From assembly GCA_964566175.1 (NCBI GenBank), contig CAZMHU010000012.1, positions 13,212 to 45,211 of the forward strand: a stretch of DNA of 32,000 bases, in the 5' to 3' direction. Every line of letters begins with the position of its first letter. Positions within the stretch are counted from its first letter, which is position 1. The translations under genes and the position numbers were made by a program. This document shows, piece by piece, positions 3,823 through 15,571 of this stretch. Under the pieces are notes generated by a model, which saw nothing but the letters and a program-made list of their open reading frames with translations, did not search any database and was not told the DNA's origin. The stretch is from an uncultured Eubacteriales bacterium (GTDB lineage Bacteria; Bacillota; Clostridia; Oscillospirales; Acutalibacteraceae).

Positions 3823-4259
3823 TTTTCGCTCCTCGCGATTTCAAAGAGGATATCCAACGCTTCGGTATAGCCTTTGAAACCGTGTCCCATAACCGTTTTA
3901 TTACAATATTTGCGAACATAACTTATCTGTCTGAAATCATCGCGTTTTGAAACATCGGAAATGTGAACTTCAACCGTCGGAATACCGACCGCTTTAAGTG
4001 CATCGAGCAGAGCGACGCTTGTGTGTGTATATGCGGCGGGGTTTATGACTATTCCGTCTATAGTTCCGTATGCCGACTGGATTTTATCAACAAGGTCACC
4101 CTCGTGATTCGATTGATAAATCTCCACCTCGACGCCTATTTCCTTTGCGTGATTTCCTATGAGCGTGCAAAGATCGCTATAGGTGGCTGTGCCGTATATT
4201 TCCGGCTCGCGAATGCCGAGCATATTGAGATTAGGGCCGTTAATAACCAAAAATTTCAT
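3819..4259 (-). CDS. aroQ: type II 3-dehydroquinate dehydratase
   Basis: 146 aa with INGPNLNMLGIREPEIYG, QSNHEG, INPAAYTHTS and EVHISDVSKRDDFR. Shares a 4-nt ATGA overlap with aroA. Confidence 0.95.
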   Translation of the reverse strand: MKFLVINGPNLNMLGIREPEIYGTATYSDLCTLIGNHAKEIGVEVEIYQSNHEGDLVDKIQSAYGTIDGIVINPAAYTHTSVALLDALKAVGIPTVEVHISDVSKRDDFRQISYVRKYCNKTVMGHGFKGYTEALDILFEIARSEK

Positions 4260-5493
4260 TGTAAAAATCCTCTTTAACAGCGCTTTCGGTATCTTCTATA
4301 CTGCCTGCGGCGTCTATTCTCGCGTCACAGCGGTTGAGATACAGCGAATAGCGTTCTTCATATCTTTTTTCAAGTGCGGCGCGATTGCTTGAAAGCGGAC
4401 GGTCTTTGGTAGAAACAAGAAGTTCAAGAGGACGGTCGAGAAAATATATTCTGCCGTTCTCACGCAACAGTGCGATGTTTTCCTCTTTTAAAATTGCTCC
4501 GCCGCCGGTTGCGATAACGGTGTGCTGTCTTGTTGCAACACTTTTTATCACTTCGCTTTCGATTTTACGGAAGCCCTCTTCGCCGCATTCGGCAAATATT
4601 TCCGATATTTTCTTGCCGCATTTTTCTTCAATGAGAATATCGGTATCGCAAAAGTTCATACCTGAATTTTTTGCCAAAAGTTTGCCTATCGTCGATTTTC
4701 CGCACGCCGGCATACCGACAAGGACGATGTTTTCTTTGCTGTATAGCAGTTCTTTGTATATGCGGTTTGTTTTTTCGCTTTCAACCGTCGTGTCGGTGAA
4801 TTTTTCCGCCGCAAACGCCGCCTGTGCCACAAGCATAAAAAGTCCGCCGATTGCGGTAATGCCGCGGTCTTTTGCGTCACACACGAGTTTTGAACGCAAC
4901 GGATTGTAAACGGCATCAACAACGCCGCAAAGATTGTTAAAACGTGTAATATCAACAGCGCTTTTATAAATATCGGGGTACATTCCGCAGGGGGTCGTGT
5001 TTATTATAATTTCGGCATCCGAATGTTTTGAAAGCGCGAGGTCGTATGTTATACAGCCGTCGGTATCGTTTCTCGAAACACGGAACACCTCTCTGCAACC
5101 GAGATTTTTCGCAACAGCCAATGCGGTTTTCGATGTGCCGCCGCTGCCTAGAATAAGCACCTTTTTGTCACACAGGTCGATGTTTGCTTTTTTAATAAGT
5201 TCGCACATTCCCGAATAATCGGTATTATAGCCGTAAAGTTTGCCGTCGCGGTTTACAATCGTGTTGACAGCGCCGATTTGCTTTGCGGTATCATCAATAT
5301 AATCGAGAAAAGGAATAACGTCCCGCTTGTAGGGAATGGTCACGTTTATTGCCGAAAAGTTTTTCTCCGTCATAAAGGCGGGAAGTTCTCCTCGCGGAAT
5401 TTCTTTCAGTATGTAATCGTAATCAAACAATTTGCGGTGTATTTCCGCGGAAAAACTGTGCGAGAGTTTTTCTCCTATACAGCCGTAATTCAT
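4240..5493 (-). CDS. aroE-aroK: bifunctional shikimate dehydrogenase / shikimate kinase (AroE-AroK fusion)
   Basis: The N-terminal ~265 aa are shikimate-dehydrogenase-like (YGCIGEKLSHSFS, LILGSGGTSKTA). The C-terminal ~150 aa are shikimate kinase (IVLVGMPACGKSTIGKLLA Walker A). The ORF track starts at TTG 5508. I prefer ATG 5493 (MNYGCIGEK...), which overlaps the aroC stop as TAATG. Confidence 0.85.
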   Translation of the reverse strand: MNYGCIGEKLSHSFSAEIHRKLFDYDYILKEIPRGELPAFMTEKNFSAINVTIPYKRDVIPFLDYIDDTAKQIGAVNTIVNRDGKLYGYNTDYSGMCELIKKANIDLCDKKVLILGSGGTSKTALAVAKNLGCREVFRVSRNDTDGCITYDLALSKHSDAEIIINTTPCGMYPDIYKSAVDITRFNNLCGVVDAVYNPLRSKLVCDAKDRGITAIGGLFMLVAQAAFAAEKFTDTTVESEKTNRIYKELLYSKENIVLVGMPACGKSTIGKLLAKNSGMNFCDTDILIEEKCGKKISEIFAECGEEGFRKIESEVIKSVATRQHTVIATGGGAILKEENIALLRENGRIYFLDRPLELLVSTKDRPLSSNRAALEKRYEERYSLYLNRCDARIDAAGSIEDTESAVKEDFYNEIFGY

Positions 5494-6584
5494 TATTTCG
5501 CCAACCAATCTGTTCCGAAACGTTCGGTTAAAATATCACAAAGGGTTATTGCCGTAACGGCATCGATAACCGCCCTCGCACGGTGAACGATGCAAGGGTC
5601 GTGTCTGCCTTTGGCAGACAGAACGGCGTCGGTGCCGTTTTTAATATCGACGGTTTGCTGTTCTTTGCTTATTGTCGGTGTGGGGCGTATTGCCGTGCGA
5701 AATACGATAGGCATTCCGTTTGTAATACCGCCGTTAATGCCGCCACTGTTGTTTTTCTTTGTCAAAACCGCATCGCCGCACATATAAAACGGGTCGTTGG
5801 CTTCACTGCCGAACATATCGGCAAGGGCGAACCCTGCGCCGAACTCAATGCCTTTAACGGCGGGAACGGAAAACAGTGCGTGTGAGAGCATACCCTCAAC
5901 CGTGTCAAACCACGGCTCACCCACACCGGCAGTCATACCGATAACGGCACTCTCAAGCACGCCGCCTACGCTGTCGCCTTCAACCTTGGCGGAGAGAATT
6001 TTTTCTTTCATAAGTTCTGCCTTTTTGCTGTCCAAAACCGCAAACGGCATATTTTTAAGAGTATCGATATCTTTTTCGGTGTCACTGAAATCGCGGTCGG
6101 ATATTCCGCCTATGCGTTTAATATGCGTGCCGATTTTGATACCTTTTTTTTCGAGTGCGGGAATAAGTATTCCGCCCACCGCTACAAGTGCCGCGGTTAT
6201 TCTTCCGCTGAAGTGTCCACCGCCGCGGTAGTCCTGAAAACCGTGATATTTCATTTCGGCGGTGTAGTCGGCGTGGGACGGACGCGCAAGACGGCTCATA
6301 TCGCTGTAATCTTTTGAGCGTGTGTCGGTGTTTGGTATTAAAATGCAAAGCGGCGTACCGGTTGTTTTGCCTTTAAAAGCACCGCTGTGTATAACATATT
6401 CGTCGGGTTCTTTGCGCGCTGTCGAGAGTCCGTCAAACGGACGCCTTAAAGAAAGCAAGGCGTCTATACGTTCTTTGCTGATTTCAACCCCCGGAGCAAT
6501 TCCGTCAATAACGGCACCGACGGCACTGCCGTGGCTCTCGCCGAAAAGGGTGACAGTCAGACTGTTTCCGAATGTGTTTTTCAT
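5493..6584 (-). CDS. aroC: chorismate synthase
   Basis: 363 aa with FGNSLTVTLFGESHGSAVGAVIDG, RPSHADY and GRHDPC motifs. TAATG overlap with the aroB stop. Confidence 0.95.
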   Translation of the reverse strand: MKNTFGNSLTVTLFGESHGSAVGAVIDGIAPGVEISKERIDALLSLRRPFDGLSTARKEPDEYVIHSGAFKGKTTGTPLCILIPNTDTRSKDYSDMSRLARPSHADYTAEMKYHGFQDYRGGGHFSGRITAALVAVGGILIPALEKKGIKIGTHIKRIGGISDRDFSDTEKDIDTLKNMPFAVLDSKKAELMKEKILSAKVEGDSVGGVLESAVIGMTAGVGEPWFDTVEGMLSHALFSVPAVKGIEFGAGFALADMFGSEANDPFYMCGDAVLTKKNNSGGINGGITNGMPIVFRTAIRPTPTISKEQQTVDIKNGTDAVLSAKGRHDPCIVHRARAVIDAVTAITLCDILTERFGTDWLAK

Positions 6585-8722: not shown

Positions 8723-9916
8723 TTATTTCGACATTTTGTATTCATCGTAAAGTGCCTTGAATGCCGGAATAGAGCGTTCAATCTGTTCATAACTTACGCA
8801 ATATGCAAGGCGTACGTAACCCTCAACGCCGAAGTCATCGCTCGGAACAGGCAGAAGTTCATATTTTTTCGCTCGCTCGCAAAACGCCTTTGCGTCGGGT
8901 TCAAGTGCCTTGACAAAGAGATAAAATGCTCCGTCGGGACGAACCGCTTCAAAACCTATGTCGCAAAGTGAATTATAAAGCAGGTCGCGGTTGCGTTCAT
9001 AACTCGAAAGGTCGGGAGAAATGCCGTCGCACTCCGCAACACAGCGTTGCCAAAGACTCGGTGCACAGACAAATCCCATACTGCGGCCTGCTCCGCAAAT
9101 GGCGGCAAAAACTTCGCCCGCATCTTGCATCTTAGGCGAAACCATAATATAGCCTATGCGTTCGCCGGGGAGCGAGAGCGACTTGCTGTATGAATAGCAT
9201 ACAACGGTATCGTCATAATAATTAGGAATATACGGCACGAATACATCACCGTAAACAAGTTCGCGATAGGGTTCGTCGGCGATTATTGTAATGCGTGTTC
9301 CGTACTCACTGCGCTTTTTTCTGAGCAAGTCCGAGAGCATCTTAATGCTTTCTTCGCCGAAAACAGCGCCCGACGGATTGTTGGGCGAATTTATTATTAT
9401 CGCGCGAGTATTTTCGTTTATTGCCTTTTCAATAGCGGGTATGTCAAGGTCGAATGTGCCGTCGGTGCACTTTACCGTTTTGACAGTTGCGCCCGAATTT
9501 TCAACGAAAACGCGATATTCGGGGAAGAACGGAGCGAGTACAATAACTTCGCTTCCTTCTTCGGTTATTGCGCCGAGTGTAACGGTGAGCGATGCCGCCG
9601 CACCGCAGGTCATATACATAAGTGCGGGGTCGGCGTCAAAAGAAAAACGCTCTTTAATATTTTTTGCAAGCGTTTTCTTAACATTCATATCGCCCGCCGC
9701 AGAAGTGTAGCCGTGAAGAGCAACGGGGTCGGTGTCGGATATAAGGCGTTTGAGCGTTTCGGTTACGACATTCGGTGCGGGAATGCTCGGATTGCCGAGA
9801 CTGAAATCGAAAACGTTTTCCGCGCCGATTTTCGACTTTCTGATCGCCGAATATTCGAAAATTTCTCTAATGCAGGAACGCTTTTTTCCAAGTTGTAACA
9901 TTTTTTTTGAAACCAT
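8723..9916 (-). CDS. class I/II PLP-dependent aminotransferase (aromatic/aspartate aminotransferase-like)
   Basis: 397 aa with NSPNNPSGAV and the YSYSKSLSLPGERIGY PLP-lysine motif. First gene of the operon, with RBS GGAGATGA upstream of ATG 9916. Confidence 0.85.
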   Translation of the reverse strand: MVSKKMLQLGKKRSCIREIFEYSAIRKSKIGAENVFDFSLGNPSIPAPNVVTETLKRLISDTDPVALHGYTSAAGDMNVKKTLAKNIKERFSFDADPALMYMTCGAAASLTVTLGAITEEGSEVIVLAPFFPEYRVFVENSGATVKTVKCTDGTFDLDIPAIEKAINENTRAIIINSPNNPSGAVFGEESIKMLSDLLRKKRSEYGTRITIIADEPYRELVYGDVFVPYIPNYYDDTVVCYSYSKSLSLPGERIGYIMVSPKMQDAGEVFAAICGAGRSMGFVCAPSLWQRCVAECDGISPDLSSYERNRDLLYNSLCDIGFEAVRPDGAFYLFVKALEPDAKAFCERAKKYELLPVPSDDFGVEGYVRLAYCVSYEQIERSIPAFKALYDEYKMSK

Positions 9917-9941
9917 AAAATCATCTCCGAAAATTTAAAAT

Positions 9942-9993
9942 AAAAAAACCGCAAACCCTTATGCGCCTTTAGAATAGGCACAAACGGTTGCGG
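9942..9993 (-). terminator. intrinsic terminator inside the operon leader (attenuator terminator)
   Basis: Minus strand reads CCGCAACCGTTTGTGCC-TATTCTAAA-GGCGCATAAGGGTTTGCGG followed by T7. It is a long GC-rich hairpin with one bulge and one G-U pair. It ends ~25 nt before ATG 9916, so it is upstream of the genes, not downstream. Confidence 0.8.
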
Positions 9994-10025
9994 ACTGTCC
10001 GTATATTCTCACCGAAAAGCGTTTT

Positions 10026-10097
10026 CTATCTTTCTTCGGCAGGAGTAGTCGGGCAGTCCTTTTTAAAGTAATAAAAGTAATAATAATTAAAGAACAT
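10026..10097 (-). CDS. leader peptide MFFNYYYFYYFKKDCPTTPAEER (23 codons, Phe/Tyr regulatory codons)
   Basis: ATG at 10097-10095 and TAG at 10028-10026, with RBS GAGAGGAG 8 nt upstream. Nine of codons 2-11 are Phe (4) or Tyr (5). It lies between the promoter and the attenuator terminator. It is too short for the ORF track. Confidence 0.75.
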   Translation of the reverse strand: MFFNYYYFYYFKKDCPTTPAEER

Positions 10098-10131
10098 ACT
10101 GTCCGCTCCTCTCAAATAAACTAACAAAAAA

Positions 10132-10160
10132 ATAATATAACTTTTTTTGCCGCTTGTCAA
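10132..10160 (-). promoter_or_regulatory. sigma-A-type promoter of the aromatic operon
   Basis: Minus strand: TTGACA (10160-10155), 17-nt spacer, TATTAT (10137-10132). Confidence 0.65.
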
Positions 10161-10203
10161 GGGTTTTTAACACTTTTATTCTTTAAAGTGCAAAAGAAAA
10201 TGC

Positions 10204-10239
10204 AAAAAGTCCACAAAAATCGAATTTTACGGACTTTTT
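10204..10239. other. isolated 9-bp hairpin with T/A runs (orphan or insulating terminator)
   Basis: AAAAAGTCC (10204-10212) pairs with GGACTTTTT (10231-10239) across an 18-nt loop. It reads as a weak terminator on either strand and lies at the edge of the accessory islet, just upstream of the aro promoter. Confidence 0.35.
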
Positions 10240-10271
10240 ATTGCCGACTTTTAAGCCAAAATCGATTTTAG

Positions 10272-10418
10272 GATATATCGATAATTAAATGCACACTTTT
10301 CGTTTGTGTGGATTTTCGCGGAAACATAATCGTTGAAAAGTATGTGGAAATGAATATCGCCCACCCCTTTCGTGAGGGCAACGGGCGTAGCACTCGCATT
10401 TGGCTTGACCAATGGTAA
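10272..10418 (+). pseudogene. Fic/DOC (Fido) domain remnant
   Basis: In-frame translation gives ...[34 protein letters not shown]. This contains the Fic active-site motif HPFxxGNGRxxR at 10362-10397. The ORF is bounded by a stop at 10269-10271 and TAA at 10416-10418, leaving only ~48 codons where a full Fic domain needs ~150 or more. Confidence 0.7.
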
Positions 10419-10435
10419 AATATAGAAAATGAATT

Positions 10436-11827
10436 TTGCGATTTTATATTCAAGGAATATGTGCCGTGGTTGGATATATTTCAACGGTGAAAGAATTTTT
10501 AAAAACCGATAGCAGTGATATTATCAGGTATTTGACAGAAATATATCATGCGGCGGAAAGAAACCAAATCGTTTCGTGGGAAATACTGCTTAACAATATA
10601 AAATCTTCTGCCGCCGTTTCCGAACTGCCGCAGGACACAGTCATTTCGGTCGAGTATTCTCTGCCAACTGACGAAATGGCAATAGACTTGATTATTGCGG
10701 GAACGACCGCCCTCGGAGAGAGATTTGCCTATATTATCGAATCAAAACAGTGGGATACACAGTATATTACTTCAGCCGATTTTTCCGCCCATAGAGAACT
10801 CGGCAGAGAACTTCATCCGCAAATACAGATAAGCCGTCATAAATTGAGTTTTAAGGATTATCTCGACATCGGTGAAGAGTATACCGTTTTTCCGTTTGTG
10901 TATATAAGAAATTCAACTTTTAATTCTGCACAGTCGATTATCGAAAAGAACCATTGGTCTTCAACACGGGATATTCCTGTTGTGACAAATATCGATGATA
11001 TCGTTTCCGTTGCCGCAAAAAATATTGTGTCGGGCGGTGACGGTATTGTCAATGACTTTTCGTGTGCCCAATACTGCCCTTCAAAAGGTGTTATTGATGC
11101 GATGAACGCCATCGTAACAAAAGAAGAAACCTTTGTTTTGACCGATGAGCAAAAACGTGTGCTCGGTGAAATCAAAAAGGGCATTGCGGACGGCAAAAAA
11201 ATAATTTGCATTGTCGGTGCCGCGGGTTCGGGAAAAAACGCAATACTTTTGAATCTGTATGTGCAATATTTGAACGAAAAATCGGCAACCGAATTTCACC
11301 CGATATTTATAAGCGGAGCGCAAAACACCGCGTACTATAGAAGTACATTTCCCGAAGTGCAAAACTCGTTTTCGTATTCCTTTGCTTTAGATAAAACCGT
11401 TTCGAAAACCAACGGTAACAAGTATGTGTTGTTAATGGACGAAGCACAGCATAACCGCGAAGGTATAATAACAGATATGGTTGCGCGGGGCACTACGTTG
11501 ATACTCGGTTATGACGTATCTCAAATAATAAATGCCGATAATTCGATATCGGAATTGAAACGCCTTGAAGAGCGGGACGATTTTGCTACCGTTGAATTAA
11601 AAGAGAGCGTTCGTTTCAGCGGGTCGCAAATCGCCGAGAAAAACATTAAAACCTTTCTGCGCGGCGGAAAATTTTTTGAAAAGGACGAACTGTACGATTT
11701 TCAGGTATTTTCGGATTTTGAGTCTTTCCAAAACAAGGTGAAAGAAACCGTTTTATCACATCAGAACGAAACGGTTGCCGTTATGGGTCTGCTTTCGTTG
11801 GGAATAAAAGAATCGGGAAAACTTTGA
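10436..11827 (+). CDS. DUF2075-like PD-(D/E)xK nuclease / P-loop NTPase, apparently C-terminally truncated
   Basis: Nuclease-like core: EYSLPTDEMAIDLIIAG...YIIESKQW (D at 10685-10687, ExK at 10739-10747). Walker A: GAAGSGKN (11216-11239). Walker B: LLMDEAQ. These are followed by LKESVRFSGSQ and YDFQVFSDFESF strings recalled from the DUF2075 / Schlafen-group-3-like helicase family. The likely true start is GTG 10466 (RBS AAGGAA 8 nt upstream). The ORF ends at 463 aa inside the convergent methyltransferase gene. Confidence 0.6.
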   Translation: MRFYIQGICAVVGYISTVKEFLKTDSSDIIRYLTEIYHAAERNQIVSWEILLNNIKSSAAVSELPQDTVISVEYSLPTDEMAIDLIIAGTTALGERFAYIIESKQWDTQYITSADFSAHRELGRELHPQIQISRHKLSFKDYLDIGEEYTVFPFVYIRNSTFNSAQSIIEKNHWSSTRDIPVVTNIDDIVSVAAKNIVSGGDGIVNDFSCAQYCPSKGVIDAMNAIVTKEETFVLTDEQKRVLGEIKKGIADGKKIICIVGAAGSGKNAILLNLYVQYLNEKSATEFHPIFISGAQNTAYYRSTFPEVQNSFSYSFALDKTVSKTNGNKYVLLMDEAQHNREGIITDMVARGTTLILGYDVSQIINADNSISELKRLEERDDFATVELKESVRFSGSQIAEKNIKTFLRGGKFFEKDELYDFQVFSDFESFQNKVKETVLSHQNETVAVMGLLSLGIKESGKL

Positions 11828-12879
11828 AGTCTGGCGGCTTCGCGCGGGGTGAGCCTTCGCTTGTATTTTCCTATTATGGGAATTTGAACCATAGCGACAA
11901 GTGCGGGAAATGAATCGGGTCGCTTTACGCGTATTCCCGACGGTCTGAATTGGATAAAGCCTTCCCAAATGCTCGATATCGATGTTCCCGCTTGCCATTC
12001 GAATTTTCTGTGGGTTGGGACAAAATCTGACAAACCGTTCCATTTTTTCAACCACATATCGATAAAGTCTTTGTTGTTGGCGTATAACGCTCGGTTCTTT
12101 TGGCAGAAATCGACCTTCCCTTTTGGAAGTTCCGAAGTGTCATATGTCTCTTTAAATTCAAAAGACCAAATCGGAAAGCCGATAACTTTTTCTTTAATAC
12201 CGTGATAAAATTCGTCCCAACAGTTAAGAACTTTTTCTTCATATTCCGAAATATTATATTTCGGGTCGGGATTTTCTTCGATAATTCCCGCTTTGTAGAT
12301 GTCGGTTTTACACTTTGCCCTGCACGGAATATCAAAATTCAGATGGTTTACGCCTAACGAGTGGTGAATGCTGAGGATATATATTCTTTCTCTCAACTGC
12401 GGAATACCGAGTTGGTGAGGACTTATAATTATAGGCGAGTCGGATAGGACATATCCCAAATCGGTCAAACTTCTTTTGATAACCCGCCAAGTGTTGCCCT
12501 TGTCGTGTGATACCAAATTTCGTACATTTTCCAAAACAATAAATTTGGGTTGCTTTTCTTTCAGTATTCTGACAATTTGAAAAAACAGAGTTCCATTTGT
12601 TTCGTCGGCAAAACCTTCCTGTCGTCCGGCTTTGGAAAATGCTTGACATAGGAAGCCGCCGCAAAGGACATCGTGGTTCGGAATTTGACTGTTTTCAATT
12701 TTTGTAACGTCGAGCGCGGCGTCAATTCCGTAATTTTTCATATACGATTCGATTGCAAATGGGTCTATTTCCGAAGTGAGAACACATCTGCCGCCCAAAT
12801 CGCTCATCGCCTGATGGAAACCGCCAATCCCCGCGAACAAATCGATACAGGCAAACCCGCTATCATCAAAGTAATTCAT
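11761..12879 (-). CDS. DNA (cytosine-5)-methyltransferase, atypical and possibly inactive
   Basis: Motifs present: I DLFAGIGG, IV GGFLCQAFS (Leu where Pro is expected), VI LENV, VIII QLGIPQLRERIYI, IX RRLTPREAARLQSFPDSF. Motif X (GNxV) is absent in frame. A KQTHNGNRFV string exists in a neighbouring frame ending at 11756. Confidence 0.8.
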   Translation of the reverse strand: MNYFDDSGFACIDLFAGIGGFHQAMSDLGGRCVLTSEIDPFAIESYMKNYGIDAALDVTKIENSQIPNHDVLCGGFLCQAFSKAGRQEGFADETNGTLFFQIVRILKEKQPKFIVLENVRNLVSHDKGNTWRVIKRSLTDLGYVLSDSPIIISPHQLGIPQLRERIYILSIHHSLGVNHLNFDIPCRAKCKTDIYKAGIIEENPDPKYNISEYEEKVLNCWDEFYHGIKEKVIGFPIWSFEFKETYDTSELPKGKVDFCQKNRALYANNKDFIDMWLKKWNGLSDFVPTHRKFEWQAGTSISSIWEGFIQFRPSGIRVKRPDSFPALVAMVQIPIIGKYKRRLTPREAARLQSFPDSFIPNESRPITATVSF

Positions 12880-13058: not shown

Positions 13059-13147
13059 TGGCGGAGACGGAGGGATTCGAACCCTCGTCCCTCAAGGGGC
13101 ATCATGATTTCGAGTCATGTCCGTTATGACCACTTCGATACGTCTCC
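13059..13147 (-). tRNA. tRNA-Ser (anticodon CGA)
   Basis: Folded by hand, 89 nt. Acceptor GGAGACG/CGTCTCC; 3-bp D stem; anticodon stem CATGA/TCATG with loop CTCGAAA; long variable arm (class II); T arm GAGGG-TTCGAAT-CCCTC; encoded CCA. Confidence 0.9.
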
Positions 13148-15495: not shown

Positions 15496-15571
15496 GGGGG
15501 CGTAGCTCATCTGGTAGAGCGCTACATTCGCATTGTAGAGGTAGTGGGTTCGAGTCCCATCGTCTCCACCA
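15496..15571 (+). tRNA. tRNA-Ala (anticodon CGC)
   Basis: Folded by hand, 76 nt. Acceptor GGGGGCG/CGTCTCC including the G3-U70 alanine identity pair; D arm GCTC-ATCTGGTA-GAGC; anticodon stem CTACA/TGTAG with loop TTCGCAT; T loop TTCGAGT; encoded CCA. Confidence 0.9.

Follow-up and report, generated by a model that had tools for sequence, protein, structure and literature searches.

In the 32,000-nt stretch of DNA analyzed here (contig CAZMHU010000012.1 of assembly GCA_964566175.1, from an uncultured Eubacteriales bacterium; hereafter the window), a nine-gene operon for phenylalanine and tyrosine synthesis is preceded by a leader that is, with high probability, a ribosome-mediated (leader-peptide) transcription attenuator sensing the supply of charged tRNA-Phe and tRNA-Tyr. 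The leader holds a short open reading frame (ORF) with a dense run of Phe (F) and Tyr (Y) codons, two short boxes that pair with each other, and an intrinsic terminator in front of the first gene. These parts, their conservation, their pairings, and their association with aromatic-pathway genes were read from 30 distinct leaders gathered from Oscillospirales genomes and metagenomes (gut and rumen Clostridia). Because the same design recurs in these ~30 related sequences, a switch of the operon on Phe/Tyr shortage is very probable. The leaders very probably form a Clostridia-specific family of dual Phe/Tyr leader-peptide attenuators, in which the principle is known and the family is described neither in Rfam nor in the literature found. 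Coordinates are positions in the window unless a contig is named, and the leader and its operon are read on the minus strand.

The leader and its relatives

A sequence-only reading of this DNA had proposed a promoter, a mini-ORF with its ribosome-binding site, a terminator, and alternative pairings among them, and direct reading of the sequence located all of these features where it had placed them on the minus strand (Table 1). The proposed TTGACA-17-TATTAT promoter matched the consensus at 11 of 12 positions and was the top promoter-like site in a promoter scan of 9500-10600; equivalent TTGAC(A/T)...TAnAAT promoters were seen 5′ of related leaders. The 23-codon ORF was present with its Phe and Tyr codons and with a Shine-Dalgarno (SD) sequence at the proposed spacing, and all related leaders carried an AAGGAGG-like SD at a similar distance. 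RNAfold gave a stable stem for the proposed terminator, followed by its U7 tract. A simple terminator scan did not list this hairpin (9993-9949), because its stem is bulged and longer than the scan template; RNAfold and the comparative data show it.

The 214-nt leader was more stable in folding than all 200 dinucleotide shuffles (z = -3.4). The minimum free energy structure of the whole leader paired the SD with the U tract, and this was judged an artifact; these parts of the RNA would never be free together. When all six frames of the window were searched, stop-free stretches of 10 codons with 8-9 F/Y occurred at this site only. One other site reached seven F/Y (~30383, minus strand); it is the antisense of a long plus-strand ORF and was regarded as chance.

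To gather relatives, orthologous operons were retrieved via the aminotransferase protein, and the motif was not used at this step. The same kind of leader was found with 10 of 11 distinct aminotransferase orthologues (66-74% identity). It was absent from locus L001 (68% identity) and from the more distant homologues L005-L008. The box 2 and terminator-foot pattern was also scanned over metagenome contigs, yielding 97 matches, from which 19 leaders with an F/Y mini-ORF were recovered; the 78 matches without an F/Y ORF were treated as chance or as cut by contig ends. One more leader was found via the DAHP (3-deoxy-D-arabino-heptulosonate 7-phosphate) synthase protein. As a result, the ORF, the F/Y run, both boxes, and the terminator were found to be kept in 29 further leaders, so that the conservation in relatives on which the sequence-only reading had staked its proposal was observed for both the mini-ORF and its F/Y enrichment. 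The genes 3′ of the leaders were always aromatic-pathway genes, encoding an aminotransferase, DAHP synthase, chorismate mutase/prephenate dehydratase, or, in one case, a prephenate dehydrogenase fragment, and the carriers of the DAHP synthase group were labeled Ruminococcaceae or Clostridia. Searches with Rfam 15 on 17 carrier loci matched no family except tRNA.

Several loci showed individual features. Upstream of the L001 operon (contig positions 2550-3000) lies a PAP2-like gene as in L003, with only a short hairpin and a TTG start; since L001 lacks the leader and yet shares this neighbor with L003, the leader appears to have been lost, or gained, within their group. Two complete leaders stand in tandem, ~190 nt apart, before DAHP synthase in three contigs (L023, ~1545-1900; L041, 1030-1380; L075, minus strand, ~1060-1390), each with its own SD, ORF, boxes, and terminator. 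In L033, L082, and L088, two adjacent ATG codons (ATGATG) open the leader ORF, whose F/Y run does not start before codon 5.

Coding signature of the mini-ORF

The ORF is present in all 30 leaders, and 29 of these were used in the alignment (A1), which was anchored on box 1. Among the 29, the ORF has 17-25 codons, and its reading frame relative to box 1 is identical throughout (29/29). Every leader has an F/Y run of 6-9 codons, of which the last is Phe in 29 of 29; at each of the six preceding positions, between 17 and 28 of the 29 leaders (59-97%) have F or Y. Family-wide, the ten codons before the spacer that separates the run from box 1 are 72% F/Y (97 F and 107 Y), and no enrichment of Trp was found in the 29 leaders (1 of 662 residues). 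The first base of the run codons is almost always U, the second toggles between U and A, which exchanges F and Y, and the third toggles synonymously between U and C; UAU/UAC and UGC/UGU interchange synonymously across leaders.

The run ends exactly 5 nt before box 1 in all 29 leaders. On its 3′ side, two variable codons are followed by the segment x-(G/D)-C-(P/S/L), which is encoded by box 1. The substitutions that occur in box 1 change the amino acid (P/S/L, G/D) and yet keep the RNA pairing (A-U or G-U, C-G or U-G), which suggests that the constraint on this segment is on the RNA and not on the peptide.

The codon bias of the leader matches the output of the operon. The products of the nine genes are a pyridoxal phosphate-dependent aminotransferase, chorismate mutase/prephenate dehydratase, AroB, AroC, an AroE-AroK fusion, AroQ, AroA, prephenate dehydrogenase, and DAHP synthase. 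They cover the full route to Phe and Tyr, including the shikimate genes, and no trp genes are among them, in line with the earlier suggestion that the leader codes for the end products of the genes behind it: the leader is F/Y-rich and not Trp-rich, and the operon makes Phe and Tyr, not Trp.

Competing helices around the two boxes

Box 1 (GGRCUGYCC, 10059-10051) is almost invariant, with GGRCUGYYY nearly invariant across leaders, and box 2 (GGACAGUCC, 10000-9992) pairs with it to form helix 1:2. In A1, 87% of the cells of this helix were paired, compared with 25-41% in slid controls. RNAalifold, given the alignment only, predicted the helix independently, and placed it so that it abuts a terminator that starts after the shared CC. 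Within the long 1:2 hairpin, the inner part covaries across the family: the duplex of each leader's own arms averaged -11.8 kcal/mol versus -6.5 kcal/mol for cross combinations, and 0 of 5000 permutations were as good. This part includes the small hairpin GCCGAAGA/UUUUCGGU across the leader stop codon, which the sequence-only reading had also noticed.

Box 1 has a second partner. Helix 0:1 forms between box 1 with its 3′ flank on one side and the spacer between SD and AUG, often extended into the SD, on the other; in the window it reaches -15.1 kcal/mol with the pairings CAGU:ACUG, CGG:CCG, and AGGAG:CUCCU. Although the sequences of this helix vary from leader to leader, the pairing is kept: over the 29 leaders, the own duplex averaged -13.9 kcal/mol versus -11.2 kcal/mol after swapping, with 0 of 5000 permutations as good. 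The two alternatives are visible in the window itself, where CGGACAGU occurs in two copies (10105-10098 and within 10001-9992), each complementary to GGACUGCCCG (10059-10050); no further copies of box 2 were found in the window besides the leader's own. Thus, both pairings of box 1 that had been drawn by hand, with box 2 and with the SD-AUG spacer, have comparative support.

The terminator is kept as well. Its foot is CCGC:GCGG in 29 of 29 leaders and is extended by U:A in 20 leaders and by a compensatory C:G in L018, the sole leader with a differing box 2. The inner arms covary in the own-versus-cross duplex test (0 of 5000 permutations). The last bases of box 2, U9994, C9993, and C9992, are common to helix 1:2 and the terminator foot, indicating that the overlap claimed between box 2 and the 5′ arm of the terminator exists and consists of (U)CC. 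In folding, a structure competing with the terminator was indeed obtained: when helix 1:2 forms, the basal pairs of the terminator are predicted to be lost and the upper stem to persist, the overlap being only 2-3 nt.

Some details of these helices differ among leaders. A C-A mismatch stands in the middle of helix 1:2 in 23 of the 29 leaders, and the other six have U-A at this place (A1 columns 69/141; window 10053/9998). The mismatched C pairs with a G of region 0 in several leaders, and the mismatch may bias untranslated RNA toward helix 0:1. In L033, L082, and L088, region 0 is GGCAGC and abuts the SD directly. The second copy of the tandem leaders lacks helix 0:1 (duplex of -2 to -5 kcal/mol versus ~-14 kcal/mol elsewhere).

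Proposed mechanism and simulated switch

A ribosome with its A site on the final Phe codon of the run has the start of box 1 at +12, counted from the first P-site base. The mRNA channel of the ribosome and its helicase site are said to end at about +12, as reportedly found by Takyar, Hickerson and Noller in 2005. In our switch model, the ribosome was moved over successive codons, and only the RNA on its 3′ side was folded, free from +12 and truncated at GCGG. With the A site on any codon of the run, the probability of helix 1:2 was 0.86-0.94 and that of the basal terminator pairs was 0.04-0.12; one codon past the run, these values became 0.00 and 0.95, respectively. A cruder mask that covered -14 to +15 and allowed pairs across the ribosome gave a blurred picture and was replaced by the +12 model, although the trend was the same for early run codons.

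These results are consistent with the following course of events. Transcription would start at ~10125, and the nascent RNA could adopt helix 0:1, helix 1:2, or the terminator, in competition with one another. If Phe or Tyr is scarce, the ribosome would stall on one of the nine F/Y codons, where it would hold region 0 apart from box 1. Box 1 itself would stay accessible: with 5 nt between it and the run, it would lie at ~+12 from the P site, just outside the mRNA channel, even during a stall at the last Phe codon. Helix 1:2 would then form and retain the CC, so that the terminator stem would end 2-3 nt before the U tract and transcription would read through into the operon. If both amino acids are plentiful, the ribosome would clear the F/Y codons, enter box 1, and reach the stop codon in the hairpin; helix 1:2 would be unwound or blocked, the full terminator would form, and transcription would stop at 9942-9948. 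If the leader is not translated, helix 0:1 would form first and sequester box 1 together with the leader SD, and termination would be favored. For this scheme, we infer which way the response goes and how large it is, how the ribosome is placed, and that an overlap of 2-3 nt would suffice.

It is possible, although we hold it to be doubtful, that the leaders go further than this and represent an undescribed cis-regulatory RNA family of Oscillospirales, plentiful in metagenomes of gut and rumen and founded by the leader of the window, with the first leader peptide reading Tyr, jointly with Phe, a minimal switch in which 2-3 nt at the base of a strong terminator are contested, and a fixed 5-nt ruler. 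With such a ruler, a ribosome halted at the last Phe codon would have the antiterminator strand exactly at its front edge. A stronger version of this idea adds a further partner beyond base pairing, such as a protein or an effect of the nascent peptide, to explain why the boxes and the x-(G/D)-C-(P/S/L) codons are invariant.

Weighing the attenuator against other explanations

Several observations speak against the proposed attenuator or limit it. The box cores are nearly invariant and therefore offer little true covariation, with double changes in 2 of 11 pairs, and box 2 was part of the pattern by which 19 of the 30 leaders were selected; GGACAGUCCGC is present in 10 of the 11 leaders found without using it as the search pattern. 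The sharp switch depends on the assumption that mRNA is free from +12: under the +15 mask, termination is predicted for stalls on the last two or three codons of the run. Without a ribosome, equilibrium folding favors helix 1:2 over helix 0:1 in about half of the leaders, including that of the window; in these, termination by default in untranslated RNA would need a kinetic basis. In about half, helix 0:1 together with the full terminator is predicted. Every simulated state is predicted to contain the upper stem of the terminator, which is strong (-23 kcal/mol, U7). Most relatives have an overlap of 3 nt between antiterminator and terminator, the window one of 2 nt (CC). The leader-peptide attenuators of E. 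coli and Salmonella share 6-11 residues and T-boxes share about 7, and in the B. subtilis trp leader, where 3 nt overlap, the attenuator is weak and its formation is not completely prevented (PMC3064811). Because of the small overlap and the strong terminator with its persistent upper stem, read-through and the range of the switch may be modest. Tandem leader copies could compensate for a modest range, and kinetics or coaxial stacking may matter as well.

The close spacing of run and box 1 can also be read in the strictly classical way, in which the stalled ribosome masks box 1, box 2 pairs with the 5′ arm of the terminator as a 2:3 antiterminator, and helix 1:2 is a pause or anti-antiterminator hairpin. 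Textbook descriptions of trp, his, and pheA have this layout, and under the +15 mask a ribosome on the last codons does cover box 1, which lies only 5 nt past the run. We consider it improbable. When box 1 was masked or unwound, the complete terminator was predicted in every leader (P ~0.9) with no alternative, and RNAalifold found no conserved helix between box 2 and the terminator interior. A separate 2:3 antiterminator, sought by masking box 1 and with RNAalifold, was not found, and this wiring would leave the covarying helix 0:1 without a role. No more probable is the idea that the near-invariant, nearly palindromic boxes (GGACAGUCC and GGRCUGYCC) bind a sensor protein, such as a TRAP-like RNA binder or a DNA repressor, with the F/Y ORF being secondary or incidental. 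The boxes are indeed conserved far beyond the need of a plain helix, and the C-A mismatch is retained in most leaders. However, where the boxes vary, G-U or A-U pairs maintain the RNA pairing, and each box base has two alternative partners while box 1 also codes, which alone is enough to slow change. A protein site would leave the coding signature of the ORF, its fixed frame, and its fixed distance to box 1 unexplained; in addition, there are no (G/U)AG repeats in the leader and no regulator gene consistently adjacent to the carrier loci.

The least credible alternative, in our judgment very unlikely, is an ordinary partial or constitutive terminator, either a leftover or an insulator against upstream transcription, beside a chance mini-ORF without any sensing. 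AT-rich leaders readily encode F, Y, N, K, and I, and the simple terminator scan did not flag the hairpin. Nevertheless, the terminator sits 3′ of the operon's own promoter, and the ORF, SD, F/Y run, spacing, and boxes are kept in 30 leaders, always before aromatic-pathway genes. In addition, the 32 kb hold only one other comparable F/Y-rich stretch, which is the antisense coding sequence mentioned above. As judged from these comparisons, conservation would exclude a chance origin.

Comparison with known regulators

The sequence-only reading had likened the leader to the pheA, trp, and his attenuators of Proteobacteria and had seen no T-box. The first part of this comparison holds for the principle and not for descent. 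As in proteobacterial pheL-pheA (Rfam Phe_leader), pheM-pheST, trpL, hisL, and thrL, a short ORF rich in end-product codons is followed by a terminator before the first gene, the position of the ribosome would pick between alternative helices, and an untranslated leader would favor the termination helix. As in thrL, which reads Thr and Ile, two amino acids would be read. Unlike pheL, the present leader has Tyr codons to be read besides Phe, and it differs from all of these leaders in sequence and covariance model, to which it shows no similarity, and in phylum (Clostridia, Oscillospirales). The antiterminator and terminator share only 2-3 nt here and not 6-11 nt (PMC3064811), the competitor of the antiterminator is the leader's own SD-AUG spacer and not the codon run, and the run lies in the loop before the first switching strand and not inside it. 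The present leader is not homologous to pheL, trpL, or hisL.

Rfam at the gathering score gave no match of the window to the Phe_leader, Trp, His, Leu, or Thr leader families. When lines with E up to 10 were considered over 9700-10500, the sole leader-family line was Thr_leader (14 bits), on the opposite strand and outside the element; the top weak lines (OrzO-P, mir-991, and similar) were far below threshold and were treated as chance. As the sequence-only reading had held, no T-box (RF00230) or other Rfam family covers the region, and the best 12-mer resembling the GGUGGNACCGCG core has five mismatches, whereas the T-box of locus L120, used as a positive control, scores 114 bits. A TRAP-type array would comprise about 11 (G/U)AG repeats with 2-3 nt spacers, and not even three such repeats were found in the leader.

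T-box leaders of Firmicutes aromatic genes resemble the present family in that, before the same genes, a leader terminator is read through when a particular tRNA is not charged. The T-box senses uncharged tRNA directly via a structured RNA of ~220 nt, whereas sensing here would go via translation of the mini-ORF. The two systems meet in close relatives: the L120 T-box (contig positions 5651-5898) stands before a DAHP synthase that is 90% identical to leader-controlled ones, and the same holds for L121 and L122. The specifier of the L120 T-box was read from the alignment as UUC (Phe). By sequence comparison, L120-L122 appear to be a direct example of exchange between a T-box and a leader peptide for the same signal. 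The DAHP synthase gene of L120 is followed by an acetyltransferase gene and not by aro genes.

The B. subtilis trp leader is similar in another respect, because its antiterminator and terminator exclude each other via only three residues at the terminator base (PMC3064811). There, TRAP bound to 11 (G/U)AG repeats makes the choice and the terminator is weak, whereas here the terminator is strong and the ribosome is the proposed selector.

A leu/phe leader of Lactococcus is reportedly known from Rfam and from work by Weinberg in 2010. For bacilli, a His leader of hisS/hisZ paralogues was reported (Naville and Gautheret 2010, PMC2965389), and Firmicutes leader peptides were called a notable finding (PMC2965389). 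Like the present family, both are amino-acid-specific peptides replacing T-boxes in Gram-positives; they differ from it in amino acids or lineage, and no Rfam match was obtained here. In the literature found, there was no specific Tyr or Phe/Tyr leader peptide for Clostridia or Ruminococcaceae; tyrosine is listed as T-box-regulated and phenylalanine as attenuator-regulated in other species (PMC1262725).

The closest published item found is uORFC-13-1. It is described (Brewer et al. 2021, PMC8632094) as a candidate upstream ORF with Phe codons, a ribosome-binding site, and a promoter; an intrinsic terminator follows it directly, aroF (DAHP synthase) lies downstream, and the arrangement is read as Phe-dependent ribosome-mediated attenuation in a Firmicutes-related lineage. 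As given there, its 24 representatives come only from Acholeplasma and unassigned environmental sequences and have "at least one" Phe codon (PMC8632094). Compared by this description only, it is compatible in concept with our leaders and, as far as the description goes, differs from them: they come from Oscillospirales metagenome-assembled genomes (MAGs), have an F/Y run of 6-9 codons and defined boxes, and also stand before pheA-like, tyrA-like, and aminotransferase genes.

Significance of the leader family

In Firmicutes, control of the genes for aromatic amino acids is ascribed to T-boxes or TRAP, and amino-acid-specific leader peptides in this phylum are treated as rarities (PMC2965389, PMC1262725). 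The family would bring classical ribosome-mediated attenuation to a large group of uncultured Clostridia from gut and rumen, where it precedes genes for DAHP synthase and aminotransferase as well as pheA-like and tyrA-like genes, and if the proposal is true, tyrosine is added to the amino acids read by leader peptides. As the leader can apparently replace a T-box before 90%-identical genes, it may offer a clean natural case of an exchange of sensing systems. The tiny overlap, the strong terminator, and the invariant spacing from ribosome to helix could make it a compact model of how few foot pairs decide termination. A covariance model of the family would improve the annotation of MAGs and flag Phe/Tyr-regulated genes.

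Feature coordinates and neighborhood of the operon

Table 1. Features of the leader and its operon in the 32-kb window
Feature	Positions	Strand	Remarks
-35 element, TTGACA	10160-10155	minus	17-nt spacer to the -10 element
-10 element, TATTAT	10137-10132	minus	sigma-70-type promoter spans 10132-10160
Leader-ORF SD, GAGAGGAG	10113-10106	minus	8 nt before ATG at 10097
Region 0: SD-AUG spacer with part of the SD, AGGAGCGGACAGU	10111-10098	minus	5′ strand of the putative anti-antiterminator; pairs with 10058-10041
Leader ORF, 23 codons and UAG, MFFNYYYFYYFKKDCPTTPAEER	10097-10026	minus	stop codon 10028-10026
Regulatory codon run, 4 Phe and 5 Tyr in codons 2-11	10094-10065	minus	ends 5 nt before box 1
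Region 1: box 1 GGACUGCCC(G) and 3′ flank	10059-10041	minus	codons 13-19; pairs with region 0 or region 2
Long 1:2 hairpin	10059-9992	minus	-23.8 kcal/mol (RNAfold)
Inner hairpin, GCCGAAGAA...UUUUCGGU	10040-10011	minus	encloses the leader stop; upper part of the 1:2 hairpin
Region 2: box 2 CGGACAGUCC	10001-9992	minus	3′ strand of the proposed antiterminator
Intrinsic terminator stem, CCGCAACC...GGUUUGCGG	9993-9949	minus	-22.6 kcal/mol (RNAfold)
U7 tract of the terminator	9948-9942	minus	
First-gene SD, GGAG	9928-9925	minus	first-gene ATG at 9916
Regulated operon, nine genes	9916-729	minus	products from NCBIfam

Logan assemblies of two sequencing runs contain an aminotransferase identical to that of the window; the nearest relatives of the window's protein are from MAGs named Faecousia, Acutalibacteraceae, Oscillospiraceae, and Clostridia. 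The AroE-AroK fusion is a single ORF of 422 aa (4240-5508, minus strand), like the fusion in L118 (410 aa).

Upstream of the leader, the genes are unrelated to the operon and encode a Schlafen-helicase-like protein and a C5 DNA methylase. The former is the divergent neighbor at 10436-11827 (plus strand), which has a Schlafen group 3 helicase domain; its 3′ end is overlapped by 67 nt by the convergent C5 cytosine DNA methylase gene at 11761-12879 (minus strand). This pair (10436-12879) may be a restriction-modification or defense islet beside the aro operon. Just 5′ of the operon promoter, at 10203-10240 (minus strand), lies an AT-rich hairpin of 16 pairs with a T-rich tail. It is located in the gap between the divergent genes, with no obvious gene to terminate, and weak sub-threshold Rfam lines (OrzO-P, 23.6 bits) fall on it. 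In the whole window, Rfam at the gathering score matched two tRNA genes only, at 13062-13147 (minus strand) and 15496-15568 (plus strand).

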